Origin: a virus
Length of the DNA stretch: 64,000 nt
Virus record (IMG/VR): IMGVR_UViG_3300025087_000053
Location: 1 to 64,000 of that record
Direction: 5' to 3' (one strand)
The notes below the pieces were generated by a model that ran no database searches, was not told the DNA's origin, and worked only from the letters and a program-made list of their open reading frames with translations. How positions within the stretch are numbered: the first letter of the stretch is position 1; every line of letters begins with the position of its first letter. Positions 3,225 to 16,632 of this stretch are shown one piece after another. A program made the translations under genes and the position numbers.

Positions 3225-3641
3225 CTAGAACGAAGAAGAGGAATCGAGAGGGATCGTAACAGAAACGATCTCCACCTCTCCCTTAAACTCCGAAACCATT
3301 CCGTTGTACACCTCCTCGCCCTCGTGCGAGACGTCCATCGCCCAATAGCGGGACGTCCTTGAGATGTTATAAATGTAATCCGCCTTCGACTTCCAAGAAG
3401 CCTTAACAGTATGAGCCCTGTATTCCTCAGAATTCAAAAGATCTTCGAGAAATCGTGCTCCCGCCTCAATGTTTAGATAATTCGGGAAGCTCGACTCTCC
3501 AATAATGTCCCGAATAAACACCCCCAATCTTTCCGGGTTTCCGTTGTTCTGAACATAAATGGAAAGCTCAGTCTTATTGAACCCCCCGTTGTTGTTGTTG
3601 CAGAAGTTGATGAGAGCGGTGGTGCTGTTCGTCTTCGACAT
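3225..3641 (-). CDS. hypothetical early protein
   Basis: 138 aa ORF behind a TTGACT-17-TATAAA promoter (3677-3705). Confidence 0.7.
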   Translation of the reverse strand: MSKTNSTTALINFCNNNNGGFNKTELSIYVQNNGNPERLGVFIRDIIGESSFPNYLNIEAGARFLEDLLNSEEYRAHTVKASWKSKADYIYNISRTSRYWAMDVSHEGEEVYNGMVSEFKGEVEIVSVTIPLDSSSSF

Positions 3642-3712
3642 TTTCTTTTTTCTTTCTTGCTCGGAAGTTATCTCTCTTTATACAAGAGTTTTCCCCAAGA
3701 GTCAATAAAAAA

Positions 3713-3970
3713 CTACTTCCCCATCTTCTTGTGGTGTGGTTCAGCCCACTTATCAAGATCAACCCACCTCCATCCGTCGCACCCCCATTCCCAAGGTGTG
3801 GAAATTTCATTGGCTTCCGGGAAAATATCCCCTTCGGGATCAAAATCGGCACTCTTAATAATTTGTTTTTCCTTGTGCCGACGGCTCCGGTTGTTATCTG
3901 TCCTATCCTCCTTGCGATTGGAGGTACGGGCATTGTTAAAAACTGGCGTCTTCTTGTAGCTGCGTGACAT
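3713..3970 (-). CDS. small basic hypothetical protein
   Basis: MSRSYKKTPV start with GGGGAAGG SD-like sequence upstream. Confidence 0.65.
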   Translation of the reverse strand: MSRSYKKTPVFNNARTSNRKEDRTDNNRSRRHKEKQIIKSADFDPEGDIFPEANEISTPWEWGCDGWRWVDLDKWAEPHHKKMGK

Positions 3971-4039
3971 CGCCTTCCCCTTGCTCTCTAACCCTAACTA
4001 TCAAAACCCGAATAAAAGAGCAAGAAGAAAGTTTTCTTT

Positions 4040-4234
4040 TTAATCTTCGCAACCATGGAGACACACAAAATCAAAAAGGTTCTTCTTTGCGGTCCTCACT
4101 GGCGCAGTAAAGGTCCCGCTGTAGACCCAGCAGCCGCTCTTGGACATAAATGCCCAAAGCTGGAACATCTTTCTGTTCTGTCCGTTGACAATGGCCTTCG
4201 AGACATTTCGAATTTGATACTTCTGCTTGTCCAT
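4040..4234 (-). CDS. hypothetical protein
   Basis: 64 aa; GGGAGG SD. Confidence 0.6.
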   Translation of the reverse strand: MDKQKYQIRNVSKAIVNGQNRKMFQLWAFMSKSGCWVYSGTFTAPVRTAKKNLFDFVCLHGCED

Positions 4235-4291
4235 TTGTTCCTCCCTATAAAACCAATAGTATCAAATTTCTTTCTTTAAAGCAAGCTGTTT

Positions 4292-4783
4292 TTAATCTTT
4301 CTTCTTTGCCTTTCTTTCAAAATCTATATAATACTCGTGGACCAAGGGTAGAAACTCTTTAAAAGCCTTTGTTTTCACGATGTTACTATAAAAAATGTCC
4401 CAAAGTGCAGAATCTGCAGCCTCCCCCGTGATCTCTTCCTTTGCTATACCCGTAATCATCATTGATTGAAACCCAGAAGGAATAAAGAAAAAAAGATTGG
4501 GTTTGCTTCTTTTTATTTTGTGGAAGGAATCGGTGTCATAAATCGTAAAACGAGTAACTTCTCGTTCTTGGTCGGAAATAAGATAAGAACCGTCCTTTTG
4601 TTCCTCTTTGGAAAGAAACTTCTCCAGATACCGGAATTCTAAGTATCCGCCAGACTTCCAAAAACGAGGATTAATTTCCACGACCTTTGCGTAAACTTGA
4701 TTTCCTTGTTTATCTTTGTAAGATTCAAACTCGCGTTCTCCCTTATATTCATGTCGGTAAGAACGTTTGTGTTCAAAAAACAT
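4292..4783 (-). CDS. hypothetical protein
   Basis: 163 aa, abuts the upstream ORF. Confidence 0.65.
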   Translation of the reverse strand: MFFEHKRSYRHEYKGEREFESYKDKQGNQVYAKVVEINPRFWKSGGYLEFRYLEKFLSKEEQKDGSYLISDQEREVTRFTIYDTDSFHKIKRSKPNLFFFIPSGFQSMMITGIAKEEITGEAADSALWDIFYSNIVKTKAFKEFLPLVHEYYIDFERKAKKKD

Positions 4784-10972: not shown

Positions 10973-11671
10973 TTATTCTTCTTCGACGTCCACAAGCTCT
11001 TGGATATATCCTCGTTCTTGAGAAAAGATTGGGATTTCTTCATCTGATACGCCGCTTTCCACAACACACCAGCCCCTCTTTTTCCACGTTTCAATGTCGT
11101 TCCAGTTAATTCCATAACCAGAAAACAACATCTCTTGCATCTCTCCCGTATTCTTTCCGTGAAGAGCCTTTGAAGAAAACTTTGATTGGGCAAGAGAGGC
11201 AATAGAATTCCTTGTTGCGTCCTGTTGCCTCCAAATAAAATAATTCACAACTTCTTCTCTTGGCAAGACAAAGCACCTTGAATCAAAATGAGCGTCTTTG
11301 TTTTTGTGTGGTGCGTTTTTATTAAAGGCAAGTGTTGCAATAGAAGCCGAAACAGAAGCTATCTTCTGCACATTCTTATCAAACCAAGAACAAGTTTTAT
11401 AAGTTTCGTAATCTGTGCAAAGAACAGAGATTTCATCGCTTTGAAGATAGGCCAAGCTCGCACCTTGAATACTTTTAATTAATGCCTTGGCTGTCTCCGT
11501 CATGGCAAAATGAAGATTCATATCCCAAGGGAACTCAAGACCTCTTGTATAGCTATGGAAAGCTTTTCCATCTATTCGAATAATCATCGGCATTCTGGGG
11601 GTTAGATGAAGTCTCGAGATATTTTCGTATCCCTTCATGCGGATTGCGAGATCGGAATTCTTTCTTGGCAT
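10973..11671 (-). CDS. thg1: tRNA(His) guanylyltransferase Thg1-like protein
   Basis: RIDGKAFH, YLQSDEIS, FDSR and YFIWRQQDATRNSI motifs. Confidence 0.92.
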   Translation of the reverse strand: MPRKNSDLAIRMKGYENISRLHLTPRMPMIIRIDGKAFHSYTRGLEFPWDMNLHFAMTETAKALIKSIQGASLAYLQSDEISVLCTDYETYKTCSWFDKNVQKIASVSASIATLAFNKNAPHKNKDAHFDSRCFVLPREEVVNYFIWRQQDATRNSIASLAQSKFSSKALHGKNTGEMQEMLFSGYGINWNDIETWKKRGWCVVESGVSDEEIPIFSQERGYIQELVDVEEE

Positions 11672-11721: not shown

Positions 11722-12861
11722 TCAATACTTAAAAACCCTTACACAGTCTGCCTGTACAGCGTCTTCTAGGTTGTGTATAAAAGCTTCGTGAGTAAACATT
11801 TTCATTTTCCCATACAAAAGTGCCTGAAGCTCTTGCGGCATCTGGTCAAGACAAGTAATGGCTAGAATCACATTCAGCGGATAAGTAGTTTGTTTATAGT
11901 CGTGAGAAATAGTTGTTCCAACTTTGGTTATATCTAACCACGCATATCTTAATATGTCTTGATGCATATTTGGTTGGTTTGTAATATCAACAATTCCATA
12001 TGGAGCTTCTTTTAATTCGTTTTCTAACGGTCCCGCCCCATGTCTTGTAAGATAAGGTCGCGTAACATAATAAATATCAAGCATCTCTTTAATTCTAGCT
12101 TCTTCTAACATAGCCAAAACGTTTGTCAACCCCGTCCTAGACCTCGTAACGTGGGGAAAGTCTTTACCGTATTCATCTAACAAAAGACCCTGAGCCCCCT
12201 CAAAAATAAAGTGTTCGTAATTTGGTAGTTTTGTAGAAGATTGAGGCCATAAGAAAGATTCACATCGTGCAGTCATAATGGCACAGTCTTCGTAATACTG
12301 TTCCCACATTTGTTTATTGTCAACTTGCTCTAAATCTTCTATAATGTTAAGCTCCCTCATCCTCCTGGGAAGCCAGAAATTAACAATCAATTCGATCTTT
12401 TTCTTCAAAAGGGATCTGTTTGAAAGATCCCTAAAAACAATAGCAAAGCCTGCCTCGCTCCTGGTAACAGTTTCGTTGATACCAAGGCCACAACTCCCGT
12501 GTTTATATTTGCCTCTTAAAGCTTCAATTGTTTGGTTTAAAATCATATCAACTGGTGTGGTTACAAGACATCGTGGATCTGCCAAAACAATTGGGTCTGG
12601 TGGCAGAGATAGAAGCTCTTGAGAAAACAAAACAGGATTTACAATAAAATGCTTGGAGAAGTAAGTAGCAGCCCCATTAAAAGTGCCTGAGCCAAAGTGA
12701 TGAAAGACGTGTCGGCTGCCATCAGATTTAATTACAGTATGAGCAGCTTGAGCCCCGCCGTTGAATCTAATTACAAGGCTTTTATTATCCGACAAGCAAT
12801 CAACAACGTGTCCCTTGCCTTCGTCGCCATAATTAGTTCCAATGACAGCCGACAGTCGCAT
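11722..12861 (-). CDS. purA: divergent adenylosuccinate synthetase-like ligase
   Basis: GDEGKG, RFNGGAQAAH, GSCGLG, FEGAQGLLLD, PHVTRS and YLTRHGAGP; lacks the canonical TTGRxRR aspartate loop. Confidence 0.85.
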   Translation of the reverse strand: MRLSAVIGTNYGDEGKGHVVDCLSDNKSLVIRFNGGAQAAHTVIKSDGSRHVFHHFGSGTFNGAATYFSKHFIVNPVLFSQELLSLPPDPIVLADPRCLVTTPVDMILNQTIEALRGKYKHGSCGLGINETVTRSEAGFAIVFRDLSNRSLLKKKIELIVNFWLPRRMRELNIIEDLEQVDNKQMWEQYYEDCAIMTARCESFLWPQSSTKLPNYEHFIFEGAQGLLLDEYGKDFPHVTRSRTGLTNVLAMLEEARIKEMLDIYYVTRPYLTRHGAGPLENELKEAPYGIVDITNQPNMHQDILRYAWLDITKVGTTISHDYKQTTYPLNVILAITCLDQMPQELQALLYGKMKMFTHEAFIHNLEDAVQADCVRVFKY

Positions 12862-15059: not shown

Positions 15060-15087
15060 CGCGCCCGGAGAGGCTTGAACTCCCGAC
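15060..15087 (-). pseudogene. 3' fragment of a canonical tRNA (T-arm plus acceptor strand)
   Basis: GTC GGGAG-TTCAAGC-CTCTC CGGGCGC G; the complementary acceptor strand GCGCCCG lies at 16626-16632. Confidence 0.65.
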
Positions 15088-15134
15088 TTGTATTTTTTAT
15101 ACAAAAGCGAGTTCGACTCCACTATTTATAATAA

Positions 15135-15210
15135 CGCCCTGGGCAGGGCTCGAACCTGCATTATTCCAATTACGGTACACACGGGTAGAAGCCGTGGCCG
15201 TTACCAGGGC
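15135..15210 (-). tRNA. non-canonical tRNA-Arg(UCU)-like gene lacking a normal D-arm
   Basis: acceptor GCCCTGG/CCAGGGC+G, anticodon arm CACGG-CTTCTAC-CCGTG, T-arm GCAGG-TTCGAGC-CCTGC; 7-nt connector instead of a D-arm and a 20-nt variable region. Confidence 0.65.
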
Positions 15211-15225
15211 AATAGGAGAACACCA

Positions 15226-16616
15226 TCCCGTTCGAGATTTAAACCACGAAATCATCAGCCGACATGAGTTTAAGCTCTCTCCTCTTATTAAAAATAATGA
15301 ATTTACAAAAAAGTCAACATATTTCACTTCGTGTGCTATATTTATAATGTGTCGAAACGTCTTTCTACAACTTCTGAAAAAAGCCTCCCTATAACTATCC
15401 TCAGTCAACGTATTCGACTCGTTCCAAATAACATCCAAACAACCTTTTTCGAACGTTGTGCTGGTGCATCTCGCTTCGTCTACAACTGGGGATTGGACCG
15501 TTGGAAAACTCAATACGAAGCCGAAGGAAAGCCCTCTTGGATCAGTCTTAACACCGAGCTGAATGCCTGCAAAAACACCGAATTTCCTTGGATGGCAAAA
15601 TTGCCGTGGGCTGTTGCTGCAACGGCGTTGTCCAACCTCGGCAATGCTTTCTCCAACTTCTTTCGCCGTATCAAATCTGGCCAAAAGCCCGGCTATCCCC
15701 GCTTCAAGTCGAAGAAACAAAGCAAAATGTCCTTCGCCGTTGAAGGTCGAGCCCTTCGCTTTGACGGCCGAAGAGTTAAGATTCCCAAGCTTGGTTGGGT
15801 CCGCACTCGACAAGAGATAAGATTTCCTGGTAAAATCCTGTCCGCTCACTTTACGAAACATGCCGGTCATTGGTACGTCTCGGTCCAAATTCAAGTCTCC
15901 GACTCCTGGTCCTATCCCCATCGCTGCGAAACCCAAGAAGCGGTTGGAGTGGATCTCGGGCTCCGAGACCTTGCCGTGCTTTCTACGGGAGAACGGGTCG
16001 AGGCTCCACGCATTCTGCGTGCTCATGAAACCAGACTGCGACGATTCAACAAGGAAATGTCTCGTCGCGTCATAGGAGGAAGAAATTGGCAGAAGACTAA
16101 AACGAAGCTTGGACGGCTGCATGAACGGATTTCCAACATCCGCAAAGACGTAACGCATAAGCTTACCGCTCGGCTGGTCCGAGACTTTCGTCGGATTGGA
16201 ATCGAGGACTTGAACGTCAAGGGGATGATGGCAAATCATCATCTTGCCAAGTCGATTGCGGATGCTGCCTTGTCGGAAATCAGGCGTCAGCTTATGTATA
16301 AAGCTCCGCTTGCCGGCAGTGAAATCATTGTTGCCGACCGCTGGTTCCCTTCTTCCAAGCTGTGTTCCGACTGTGGAACAAGACGAGAAGGACCGTTGCC
16401 TTTGTCCATCCGAGAATGGGTTTGTGAGGTTTGTGGGGTTGTCCACGACCGAGACATCAACGCAGCCATTAATCTTAGAACCGCCGCCCTGGCGGGGATA
16501 GCCTGCTGTCAAGAAAGCTCTGGTTCTGGCCCTACGGCCAGAACGAAACTTCCTCATGGGCAGGAATTGAGCAACTGTGTTAACTAATGGGTTCATGGTT
16601 TAAGTCTCAAATGGGA
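15226..16616 (+). mobile_element. TnpB-only IS element, copy A (IS607/IS1341-like, no transposase)
   Basis: left end TCCCGTTCGAGATTTAAACC and right end GGTTTAAGTCTCAAATGGGA are inverted copies; homologous to copies B-E. Confidence 0.85.
15349..16587 (+). CDS. tnpB: RNA-guided endonuclease TnpB
   Basis: N-terminal HTH (RFVYNWGL), VGVDLG, IGIEDL, CSDC/CEVC, HDRDINAAINL; probable GTG start at 15349. Confidence 0.93.
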   Translation: MSKRLSTTSEKSLPITILSQRIRLVPNNIQTTFFERCAGASRFVYNWGLDRWKTQYEAEGKPSWISLNTELNACKNTEFPWMAKLPWAVAATALSNLGNAFSNFFRRIKSGQKPGYPRFKSKKQSKMSFAVEGRALRFDGRRVKIPKLGWVRTRQEIRFPGKILSAHFTKHAGHWYVSVQIQVSDSWSYPHRCETQEAVGVDLGLRDLAVLSTGERVEAPRILRAHETRLRRFNKEMSRRVIGGRNWQKTKTKLGRLHERISNIRKDVTHKLTARLVRDFRRIGIEDLNVKGMMANHHLAKSIADAALSEIRRQLMYKAPLAGSEIIVADRWFPSSKLCSDCGTRREGPLPLSIREWVCEVCGVVHDRDINAAINLRTAALAGIACCQESSGSGPTARTKLPHGQELSNCVN

Positions 16617-16632
16617 ACTGAGCTACGGGCGC
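16616..16632 (-). pseudogene. 5' fragment of a canonical tRNA (Arg-like)
   Basis: GCGCCCGTAGCTCAGTT; removing element A extends it with GG to give a normal D-loop start. Confidence 0.65.

Follow-up and report, generated by a model that had tools for sequence, protein, structure and literature searches.

The described tRNA closest to the gene reported here is the canonical bacterial and phage tRNA-Arg(UCU), for which the tRNA-Arg of phage T4 can serve as the example of comparison. The two have in common the minihelix formed by the acceptor and T arms, a stem-loop of the CUUCUAA/C type, the bases U8, A14, G18-G19, A20, A21, C35 and U36, the T-loop, a setting in phage tRNA arrays and a presumed reading of AGA codons. 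They differ in the connectivity of the core strands: in the rewired form the strands of the D-stem and the D-loop lie on opposite sides of the anticodon arm, and a linker of 3-8 nt (range of the rewired family) takes the place of the usual path of the variable loop. Segments in a non-canonical order are also found in Cyanidioschyzon merolae and in certain archaea, whose circularly permuted tRNA genes place the 3' half ahead of the 5' half; a normal tRNA is then regained by way of a circular processing intermediate. In contrast, the rewired gene carries acceptor strands at both gene ends and has normal termini, the swap concerns two internal segments, no splice motif is evident, and the mature RNA would keep the permuted order.

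Two further groups of non-canonical tRNAs are relevant. The D-armless mitochondrial tRNAs, such as the nematode mt-tRNA-Ser(UCU), resemble the rewired gene in the missing hairpin between the acceptor and anticodon arms and in being missed or mis-scored by tRNA finders; they are shortened and flexible, have lost the contact between D-loop and T-loop and need adapted partner proteins (PMC7609411). The phage family differs in being of full length (76-79 nt), in having covarying equivalents of the D-stem together with D-loop equivalents, in conserving the GG and the T-loop, and in that it would need the ordinary bacterial machinery. The allo-tRNAs and other non-canonical cloverleaves are, like the present family, natural tRNAs with an altered helix arrangement that were found by bioinformatics; forms of the 8/4 and 9/3 type have altered helix lengths in a normal strand order (PMC7609411), and none of them closes its D-stem across the anticodon arm as the rewired family does. 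Neither phages nor permuted layouts come up in a review of non-canonical tRNAs (PMC7609411), and in the openly readable full-text literature no description of a swapped-strand tRNA layout was found, a search with the core sequence string included. The Arg(TCT) of the Sf14 paper was considered as a prior description and rejected, as it appears to be canonical. On balance, the architecture seems to have been undescribed until now.

The rewired gene is located in the IMG/VR virus record IMGVR_UViG_3300025087_000053, a record of 75.6 kb with an estimated completeness of 38%, which points to a large phage; positions 1 to 64,000 of the record are referred to here as the window. The tRNA-like gene comprises 76 nt, with flawless Watson-Crick pairing in its acceptor, anticodon (UCU) and T arms. 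Read from 5' to 3', the first half of the gene is GCCCUGG / UA / ACGG / C / CACGG-CUUCUAC-CCGUG and the second half UGUA / CCGU / AAUUGGAAUAAU / GCAGG-UUCGAGC-CCUGC / CCAGGGC / G (Table 1). The acceptor strand and the anticodon stem are separated by 7 nt only, with no local D-arm hairpin (positions 10-25) in the window copy, while the stretch of 20 nt that precedes the T arm contains the complement of ACGG (CCGU) and a D-loop-like strand with GG. The sequence is therefore in agreement with an earlier note on this DNA, in which three perfect arms, 7 nt at the site of the D-arm and half of a D-arm in front of the T arm had been described. In permuted numbering, ACGG corresponds to the D-stem positions 22-25 and CCGU to the D-stem positions 10-13. 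A CCA end is not encoded in the window copy; many homologues encode CCA after the discriminator. Regarding the predicted fold of the window copy, the energy was -29.6 kcal/mol with the ACGG/CCGU helix and -26.0 kcal/mol without it, and the unconstrained minimum-energy fold was a different structure (-31.3 vs -29.6 kcal/mol).

Table 1. Coordinates of the rewired tRNA gene, its parts and its surroundings in the window
Feature	Position	Strand	Remarks
Thg1-like protein	10973..11671	(-)	3.5 kb from the element
PurA/PurZ-type adenylosuccinate-synthetase-like gene	11722..12861	(-)	a few kb from the rewired tRNA
3' remnant (T arm + CGGGCGC) of a separate canonical tRNA gene	15060..15087	(-)	CGGGCGC pairs with GCGCCCG at 16626-16632
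A/U-rich hairpin UUGUA-UAAAAAA-UACAA	ca. 15090..15110		between the remnants
Rewired tRNA gene, complete	15135..15210	(-)	76 nt
Acceptor stem 3' strand CCAGGGC + discriminator G	15135..15142	(-)	direct reading
T arm GCAGG-UUCGAGC-CCUGC (stem, loop, stem)	15143..15159	(-)	perfect 5-bp stem
D-loop-like single strand AAUUGGAAUAAU	15160..15171	(-)	equivalents of A14, A15, G18, G19, A20, A21 and U48
CCGU, 3' strand of the long-range helix	15172..15175	(-)	in homologues located by the following UAA motif alone
Linker UGUA, anticodon stem to second helix strand	15176..15179	(-)	short-linker subtype
Anticodon arm, 5-bp stem + 7-nt loop CUUCUAC	15180..15196	(-)	UCU anticodon at 15187-15189
ACGG, 5' strand of the long-range D-like helix	15198..15201	(-)	complementary to CCGU at 15172-15175
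UA, equivalents of U8 and A9	15202..15203	(-)	invariant in the 34-sequence MAFFT alignment; at least 95% of 42 distinct sequences
Acceptor stem 5' strand GCCCUGG, nt 1-7	15204..15210	(-)	pairs perfectly with 15136-15142
TnpB ORF	15331..16587	(+)	OrfB_IS605, Cas12f1-like TNB and HTH_OrfB_IS605 domains
5' remnant (GCGCCCG UA GCUC AGUU) of the same canonical tRNA-Arg-like gene	16616..16632	(-)	severed by the TnpB element

A total of 42 distinct homologues was collected from IMG/VR contigs and GenBank phages. Comparison with GenBank phages using blastn yielded the full element, at an identity of 79%, in the Streptomyces phages Yaboi, Genie2, BoomerJR, Enygma and others, and two pattern scans of IMG/VR yielded 20 and 35 loci. 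The matched copies of Yaboi and Enygma are each located within a tRNA array. With the copy of Yaboi as the query, 114 GenBank phage records showed a match over at least 80% of the length of the copy; with the copy of phi92 the number of GenBank records with such a match was 256, a count obtained by BLAST that stands as a proxy for the layout. The matching records include phages of the Felix O1, phi92 and 121Q/PBECO4 types, myoviruses of Klebsiella and Serratia, and podoviruses of N4 size. The layout itself was verified one by one in Felix O1 (FO1a), phi92, 121Q, the Streptomyces phages Yaboi, Enygma and Mildred21, and the Rhodococcus phage Trina. An exact 30-mer spanning the window copy's own junction gave no match in IMG/VR, which leaves this copy without close relatives there. 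Among genomes representing 185,579 species of bacteria and archaea the core motif was matched once, on a contig of a metagenome-assembled genome that is itself phage-like (PurZ-type synthetase, endolysin-like peptidase, phage endonucleases); the family is thus essentially confined to phages.

The linker that joins the anticodon stem to the second helix strand comprises 3-5 nt in 13 members, and in the remainder it is an 8-nt motif of the CGUUAAYC type. This motif, which occupies columns 33-40 of the 42-sequence alignment, is nearly invariant in the main subtype, though the 13 members use 3-5 unrelated nucleotides at the same place; it may contribute base triples to the groove of the D-like helix or be a recognition site for a protein. 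Several genes were observed beside members of the family. In Felix O1 (FO1a; locus 2501-2579) and in Mildred21 (locus 1202-1277) the rewired gene has HNH endonuclease genes beside it or directly adjoining it, and these might aid its spread between phages. The starts of two annotated coding sequences, HNH gp44 in FO1a and a thioredoxin in Trina (tRNA at 1197-1275), overlap the rewired tRNA and may be mis-called. Genes with a nucleotidyltransferase domain are located beside the rewired tRNAs of Yaboi (4012-4533) and near that of Trina (1563-2063), and could encode phage CCA-adding or repair enzymes.

The long-range helix was assessed in a MAFFT alignment of 34 distinct sequences that had not been fitted to any structure, in which the helix occupies columns 11-13 and 40-42. 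Each of its three pairs varies at both positions; the central one is U-A in 16 sequences, G-C in 12, C-G in four and A-U in two, with no sequence unpaired. The cells of the helix were paired to 98% and those of the entire structure to 98.2%; sliding the 3' partner by 1-3 columns reduced the pairing to 33-45%, and none of 500 shuffled alignments attained the observed covariation score. When the 42 distinct sequences were aligned to the family model, the helix was paired to 99.2%, with the same outcome for covariation. A motif-anchored parse of 38 sequences, in which the two strands were located solely by a fixed offset and by the following UAA motif, gave complementary strands in 37 of them, in nine versions (CGG/CCG, CUC/GAG, CGU/ACG, CAC/GUG, CGC/GCG, CCC/GGG, UCC/GGA, CCG/CGG and ACC/GGU). 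The pair that flanks the helix, position 13:22 in permuted numbering, reads U·U in the majority of members, and the window copy has A-U there; the 13:22 pair is often non-Watson-Crick in normal tRNAs as well. In the acceptor stem all seven pairs covary across the family (99.6% of the cells paired), and the anticodon stem covaries likewise, both stems varying freely with compensation as in real tRNAs. Judged from the sequences, i.e., from the 73.5 bits that the window copy reached on the covariance model of the permuted layout and from 42 distinct homologues with covariation, the permuted layout of the element is more than a product of chance.

These pairings bear on the alternative that the gene encodes a functional D-armless tRNA with a floppy connector, comparable to mitochondrial tRNA-Ser, in which ACGG, CCGU and the GG strand form no defined core. 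The helix is short, with just 3-4 bp and an asymmetric internal loop between it and the anticodon stem, and RNAalifold applied to the unfitted alignment returned the three classical arms and, on grounds of energy, omitted the 3-bp long-range helix, as such a tRNA would lead one to expect. Compensatory changes at three pairs and a pairing of 98-99% are, however, hard to explain without a helix, and all the elbow and core bases are conserved in an element that is not shortened, which makes the D-armless alternative very improbable. The proposal of the earlier note, namely an internally permuted tRNA in which the ACGG-CCGU helix encloses the anticodon hairpin and a GG strand lies beside the T arm, is supported by the covariation at the three core pairs, and the search for covariation in homologues with a covariance model, which the note had called for, found the displaced helix conserved together with the GG and the equivalents of A14/A15, A21 and U48.

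Regarding single positions in the 34- and 42-sequence alignments, conservation in the permuted order extends to the equivalents of U8, A9, A14/A15, G18-G19, A21, U48, U33 and A37 and to the T-loop. The D-loop-like strand keeps the pattern UAA..GG-A..A-U throughout the family; its first three bases U-A-A represent positions 13, 14 and 15, its final U represents U48, the partner of A15, and the A in front of it represents A21. The T-arm motif GGUUCGA is invariant in the 34-sequence alignment, and two isoleucine members read UUCAA. The anticodons of the 42 distinct sequences were UCU (35), UCG (2), ACG (2) and CCU (1), all of them for arginine, as well as GAU (1) and UAU (1) for isoleucine. The base that follows the GG was A in every member with an arginine anticodon except one of different spacing (L008), and U in both isoleucine members, of which the GAU member also has G16, U12-A23 and A73. 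The published identity set of bacterial tRNA-Arg consists of A20 as the main determinant for arginyl-tRNA synthetase (ArgRS), C35, U/G36 and A/G/U73, and that of bacterial tRNA-Ile includes U20, G16, U12-A23 and A73 (PMC9976931). As read from the aligned sequences, the identity bases appear to switch along with the anticodon in a manner that matches these published sets. The window copy, with GG-A, the anticodon UCU and the discriminator G, fits the arginine set.

Rewired copies with isoleucine anticodons (GAU, UAU) were observed in Yaboi (4543-4619), in Mildred21 and in one further locus (L031, 5506-5582), so that the layout is not limited to arginine. Yaboi also encodes a canonical tRNA-Ile(GAU), which makes the rewired isoleucine copy redundant in this phage.

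Canonical tRNA genes were present in the fetched flanks of 44 of the 47 loci, i.e., the rewired genes are situated in tRNA arrays. A canonical Arg(tct) was found nearby in just two of the 47, in one of which the anticodon of the rewired copy is UCG. The annotated tRNA set of Yaboi covers all 20 amino acids, but its canonical arginine tRNAs are UCG and ACG only, UCU and CCU being represented solely by rewired genes. In phi92, which has no annotated tRNA-Arg, the rewired element occupies a gap in the tRNA array. Felix O1 has canonical Arg(ACG) only, and its rewired UCU gene reached 88.6 bits on the family model; the authors of the paper on this genome had expected a tRNA for AGA, an over-used codon, and did not find one (PMC3185647). 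In Felix O1, phi92 and other classic phages, the "missing" tRNA for AGA is probably the rewired one, to the extent that gene content and codon usage can tell. The arginine(UCU) assignment made in the earlier note agrees with the conserved C35, U36 and A20 equivalent and with the near-constant absence of a canonical Arg(UCU) from the arrays that carry the gene.

The same distribution has to be weighed for a tRNA mimic or decoy, i.e., an RNA with a tRNA-like fold that has no part in translation and soaks up or misdirects a host factor, for instance an anticodon nuclease, an enzyme of tRNA modification or a defence system that senses tRNAs. Such a role had been named as an alternative in the earlier note. 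A non-canonical layout confined to phages (one match, on a phage-like contig, in 185,579 species) would suit such a role, and the 8-nt linker CGUUAAYC is strongly conserved and serves no purpose in the tRNA model. A decoy would, on the other hand, hardly be expected to retain all features of decoding and charging (U33, A37, A20, discriminator, often CCA), would not need identity bases that change together with the anticodon, and should not be nearly confined to sites that lack a canonical Arg(UCU). A decoy is accordingly regarded as unlikely.

The members of the family have largely escaped annotation. ARAGORN called none of 39 native copies, and it missed those of the window, Yaboi and Enygma. 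In GenBank almost all copies either carry no label (e.g., Enygma), are labeled Leu(taa), Phe(gaa) or tRNA-OTHER, or form part of a coding sequence; the copy of Yaboi is labeled Val(aac). The anticodons Val(aac) and Leu(taa) seem to have been taken from the linker; both labels were rejected, as the linker is only 3-5 nt long in 13 members and is not flanked by a covarying stem, while the CUUCUAA hairpin is kept. On the Rfam model RF00005 members of the family scored 25-39 bits at a cut-off of 29, compared with approximately 45-70 bits for canonical tRNAs of the same genomes. The window copy reached a marginal 32.5 bits in a direct search, above the gathering threshold of 29; in an Rfam cmscan the element was not listed as a tRNA, the only match being a weak antisense one to RF04354. 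A dedicated family for the permuted layout is absent from Rfam 15. The expectation of the earlier note that standard finders would miss or misclassify the gene thus held for ARAGORN and for the GenBank labels and went too far for the Rfam tRNA model, which is marginal and not blind (32.5 vs 29). The covariance model of the family separated its members (53-101 bits) from the canonical tRNAs of five complete phage genomes (33 bits at most).

Undoing the permutation in silico was also considered as a line of evidence and rejected. When the 3' block of the window copy was moved behind nt 7-9, ARAGORN called a tRNA-Arg(tct), a rescue that is non-specific according to the control: moving the true block behind nt 8-9 rescued 37 of 39 copies and moving a wrong block 35 of 39.

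The surroundings of the window copy differ from the usual setting in that this copy is located outside any tRNA array. What is left of a canonical tRNA-Arg-like gene are two remnants that pair as a perfect acceptor stem of 7 bp and bracket both the TnpB element and the rewired gene; the middle of the broken tRNA (3' strand of the D-stem, anticodon arm) is unrecognisable. The locus is hence a disturbed former tRNA site, in which the rewired gene itself is intact. An A/U-rich hairpin was also seen between the remnants (Table 1). The other genes near the element code for a Thg1-like protein, a PurA/PurZ-like protein and an ankyrin protein. Thg1-like proteins belong to the tRNA-His guanylyltransferase family, relatives of which repair the 5' ends of tRNAs, and the one in the window may be tied to tRNA maintenance. 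PurZ is a marker of phages that replace adenine with 2-aminoadenine. A PurA/PurZ-type gene lies within a few kb of the rewired tRNA both in the window phage and in the only 'bacterial' contig that bears the motif (3345-4559, minus strand), which may be a coincidence.

From this setting it could be concluded that the window copy is a dead relic of an otherwise functional family, stranded by the TnpB insertion and the rearrangement of the tRNA locus, and not expressed. Its position between the halves of a broken canonical tRNA gene beside a TnpB element, the location outside an array and the missing CCA would be in line with a relic, as would the result that no strong consensus promoter was found immediately upstream on its strand. 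Four perfect helices, the presence of each base conserved in the family and the score on the family model speak against decay. Codon usage points in the same direction: AGA is the commonest arginine codon of the window phage (46% of its arginine codons), and no other arginine tRNA was found within the 75.6-kb record. The sole other tRNA found by ARAGORN in the window, Ser(GGA), reads the dominant serine codon TCT. A relic is therefore considered quite improbable.

Taken together, the gene is likely to be a working phage elongator tRNA-Arg(UCU) that reads AGA and is built on a non-canonical, phage-restricted scaffold with swapped strands, a reading that draws on comparative sequence analysis. 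In the proposed structure, nucleotides 8-9 would lead directly into the strand that normally constitutes the D-stem positions 22-25, and this strand would continue into the anticodon stem. After the anticodon stem, the short linker would lead to the strand equivalent to positions 10-13, which would pair back over the anticodon hairpin and be followed by the D-loop-like strand (A14, A15, G18, G19, A20, A21), with U48 and the T arm after it. In this way the L-shape could retain its stacked helices and elbow contacts, with the strand order B-A instead of A-B. In the known geometry of tRNA, U8 adjoins the D stem at its 13:22 end, positions 44 and 10 are neighbours, and A21 adjoins the 15:48 layer; with these positions adjacent, the new joins (9 to 22, 43/44 to 10 and 21 to 48) would be short and the L-shape could survive. 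We infer that the RNA would fold into the L-shape, would be arginylated by the ArgRS of the host via A20, C35 and U36, and would be used by the ribosome. Rearrangement into a normal tRNA after transcription was also considered and set aside, as it would take two cleavage and two ligation steps and the order as encoded is consistent in itself. Regarding transcripts, 13 RNA-labelled runs contain at least part of a phi92-type array. Four RNA runs were examined: two cover the element within long contigs only (possible DNA carry-over), one does not cover it, and the raw-read run yielded nothing.

Why the core should be swapped can be addressed only tentatively. The swapped core might be an adaptation, in that the ribosome, EF-Tu and ArgRS would accept such a tRNA while factors of the host or of rivals that need a normal D-arm could not act on it; this is a possibility held with considerable doubt. 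Among the factors evaded in this way might be defence-system nucleases that act on tRNAs, enzymes of tRNA modification or activities of the phage itself that deplete the tRNAs of the host. Evasion of tRNA-cleaving defences, the reason suggested in the earlier note, is compatible with the restriction of the family to phages and is speculation. If the adaptation reading is true, the family would represent a naturally orthogonal scaffold for tRNA-Arg (in some phages tRNA-Ile) that is spread among phages of Actinobacteria and Enterobacteria. Uses could lie in a candidate scaffold for engineered orthogonal tRNAs and in a test case for phage tRNAs against tRNA-targeting defence.

For annotation, the family marks a blind spot, with hundreds of phage genomes in which this gene is not annotated and with some coding-sequence calls that overlap it. 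For the phages themselves, it would explain an old gap, i.e., that Felix O1 over-uses AGA and no matching tRNA had been found (PMC3185647); phi92, the jumbo phages of the 121Q type and the Streptomyces phages likewise appear to be without another decoder of AGA. Few architectures in biology are as conserved as that of tRNA. While known exceptions among tRNAs shorten or lengthen arms, this family appears to reorder the strands of the core and to keep all the contact bases. If the RNA is charged and decodes AGA, it would mean that the L-shape can be built with another topology and that this topology is compatible with the ordinary ArgRS, EF-Tu, RNase P and ribosomes of bacteria.
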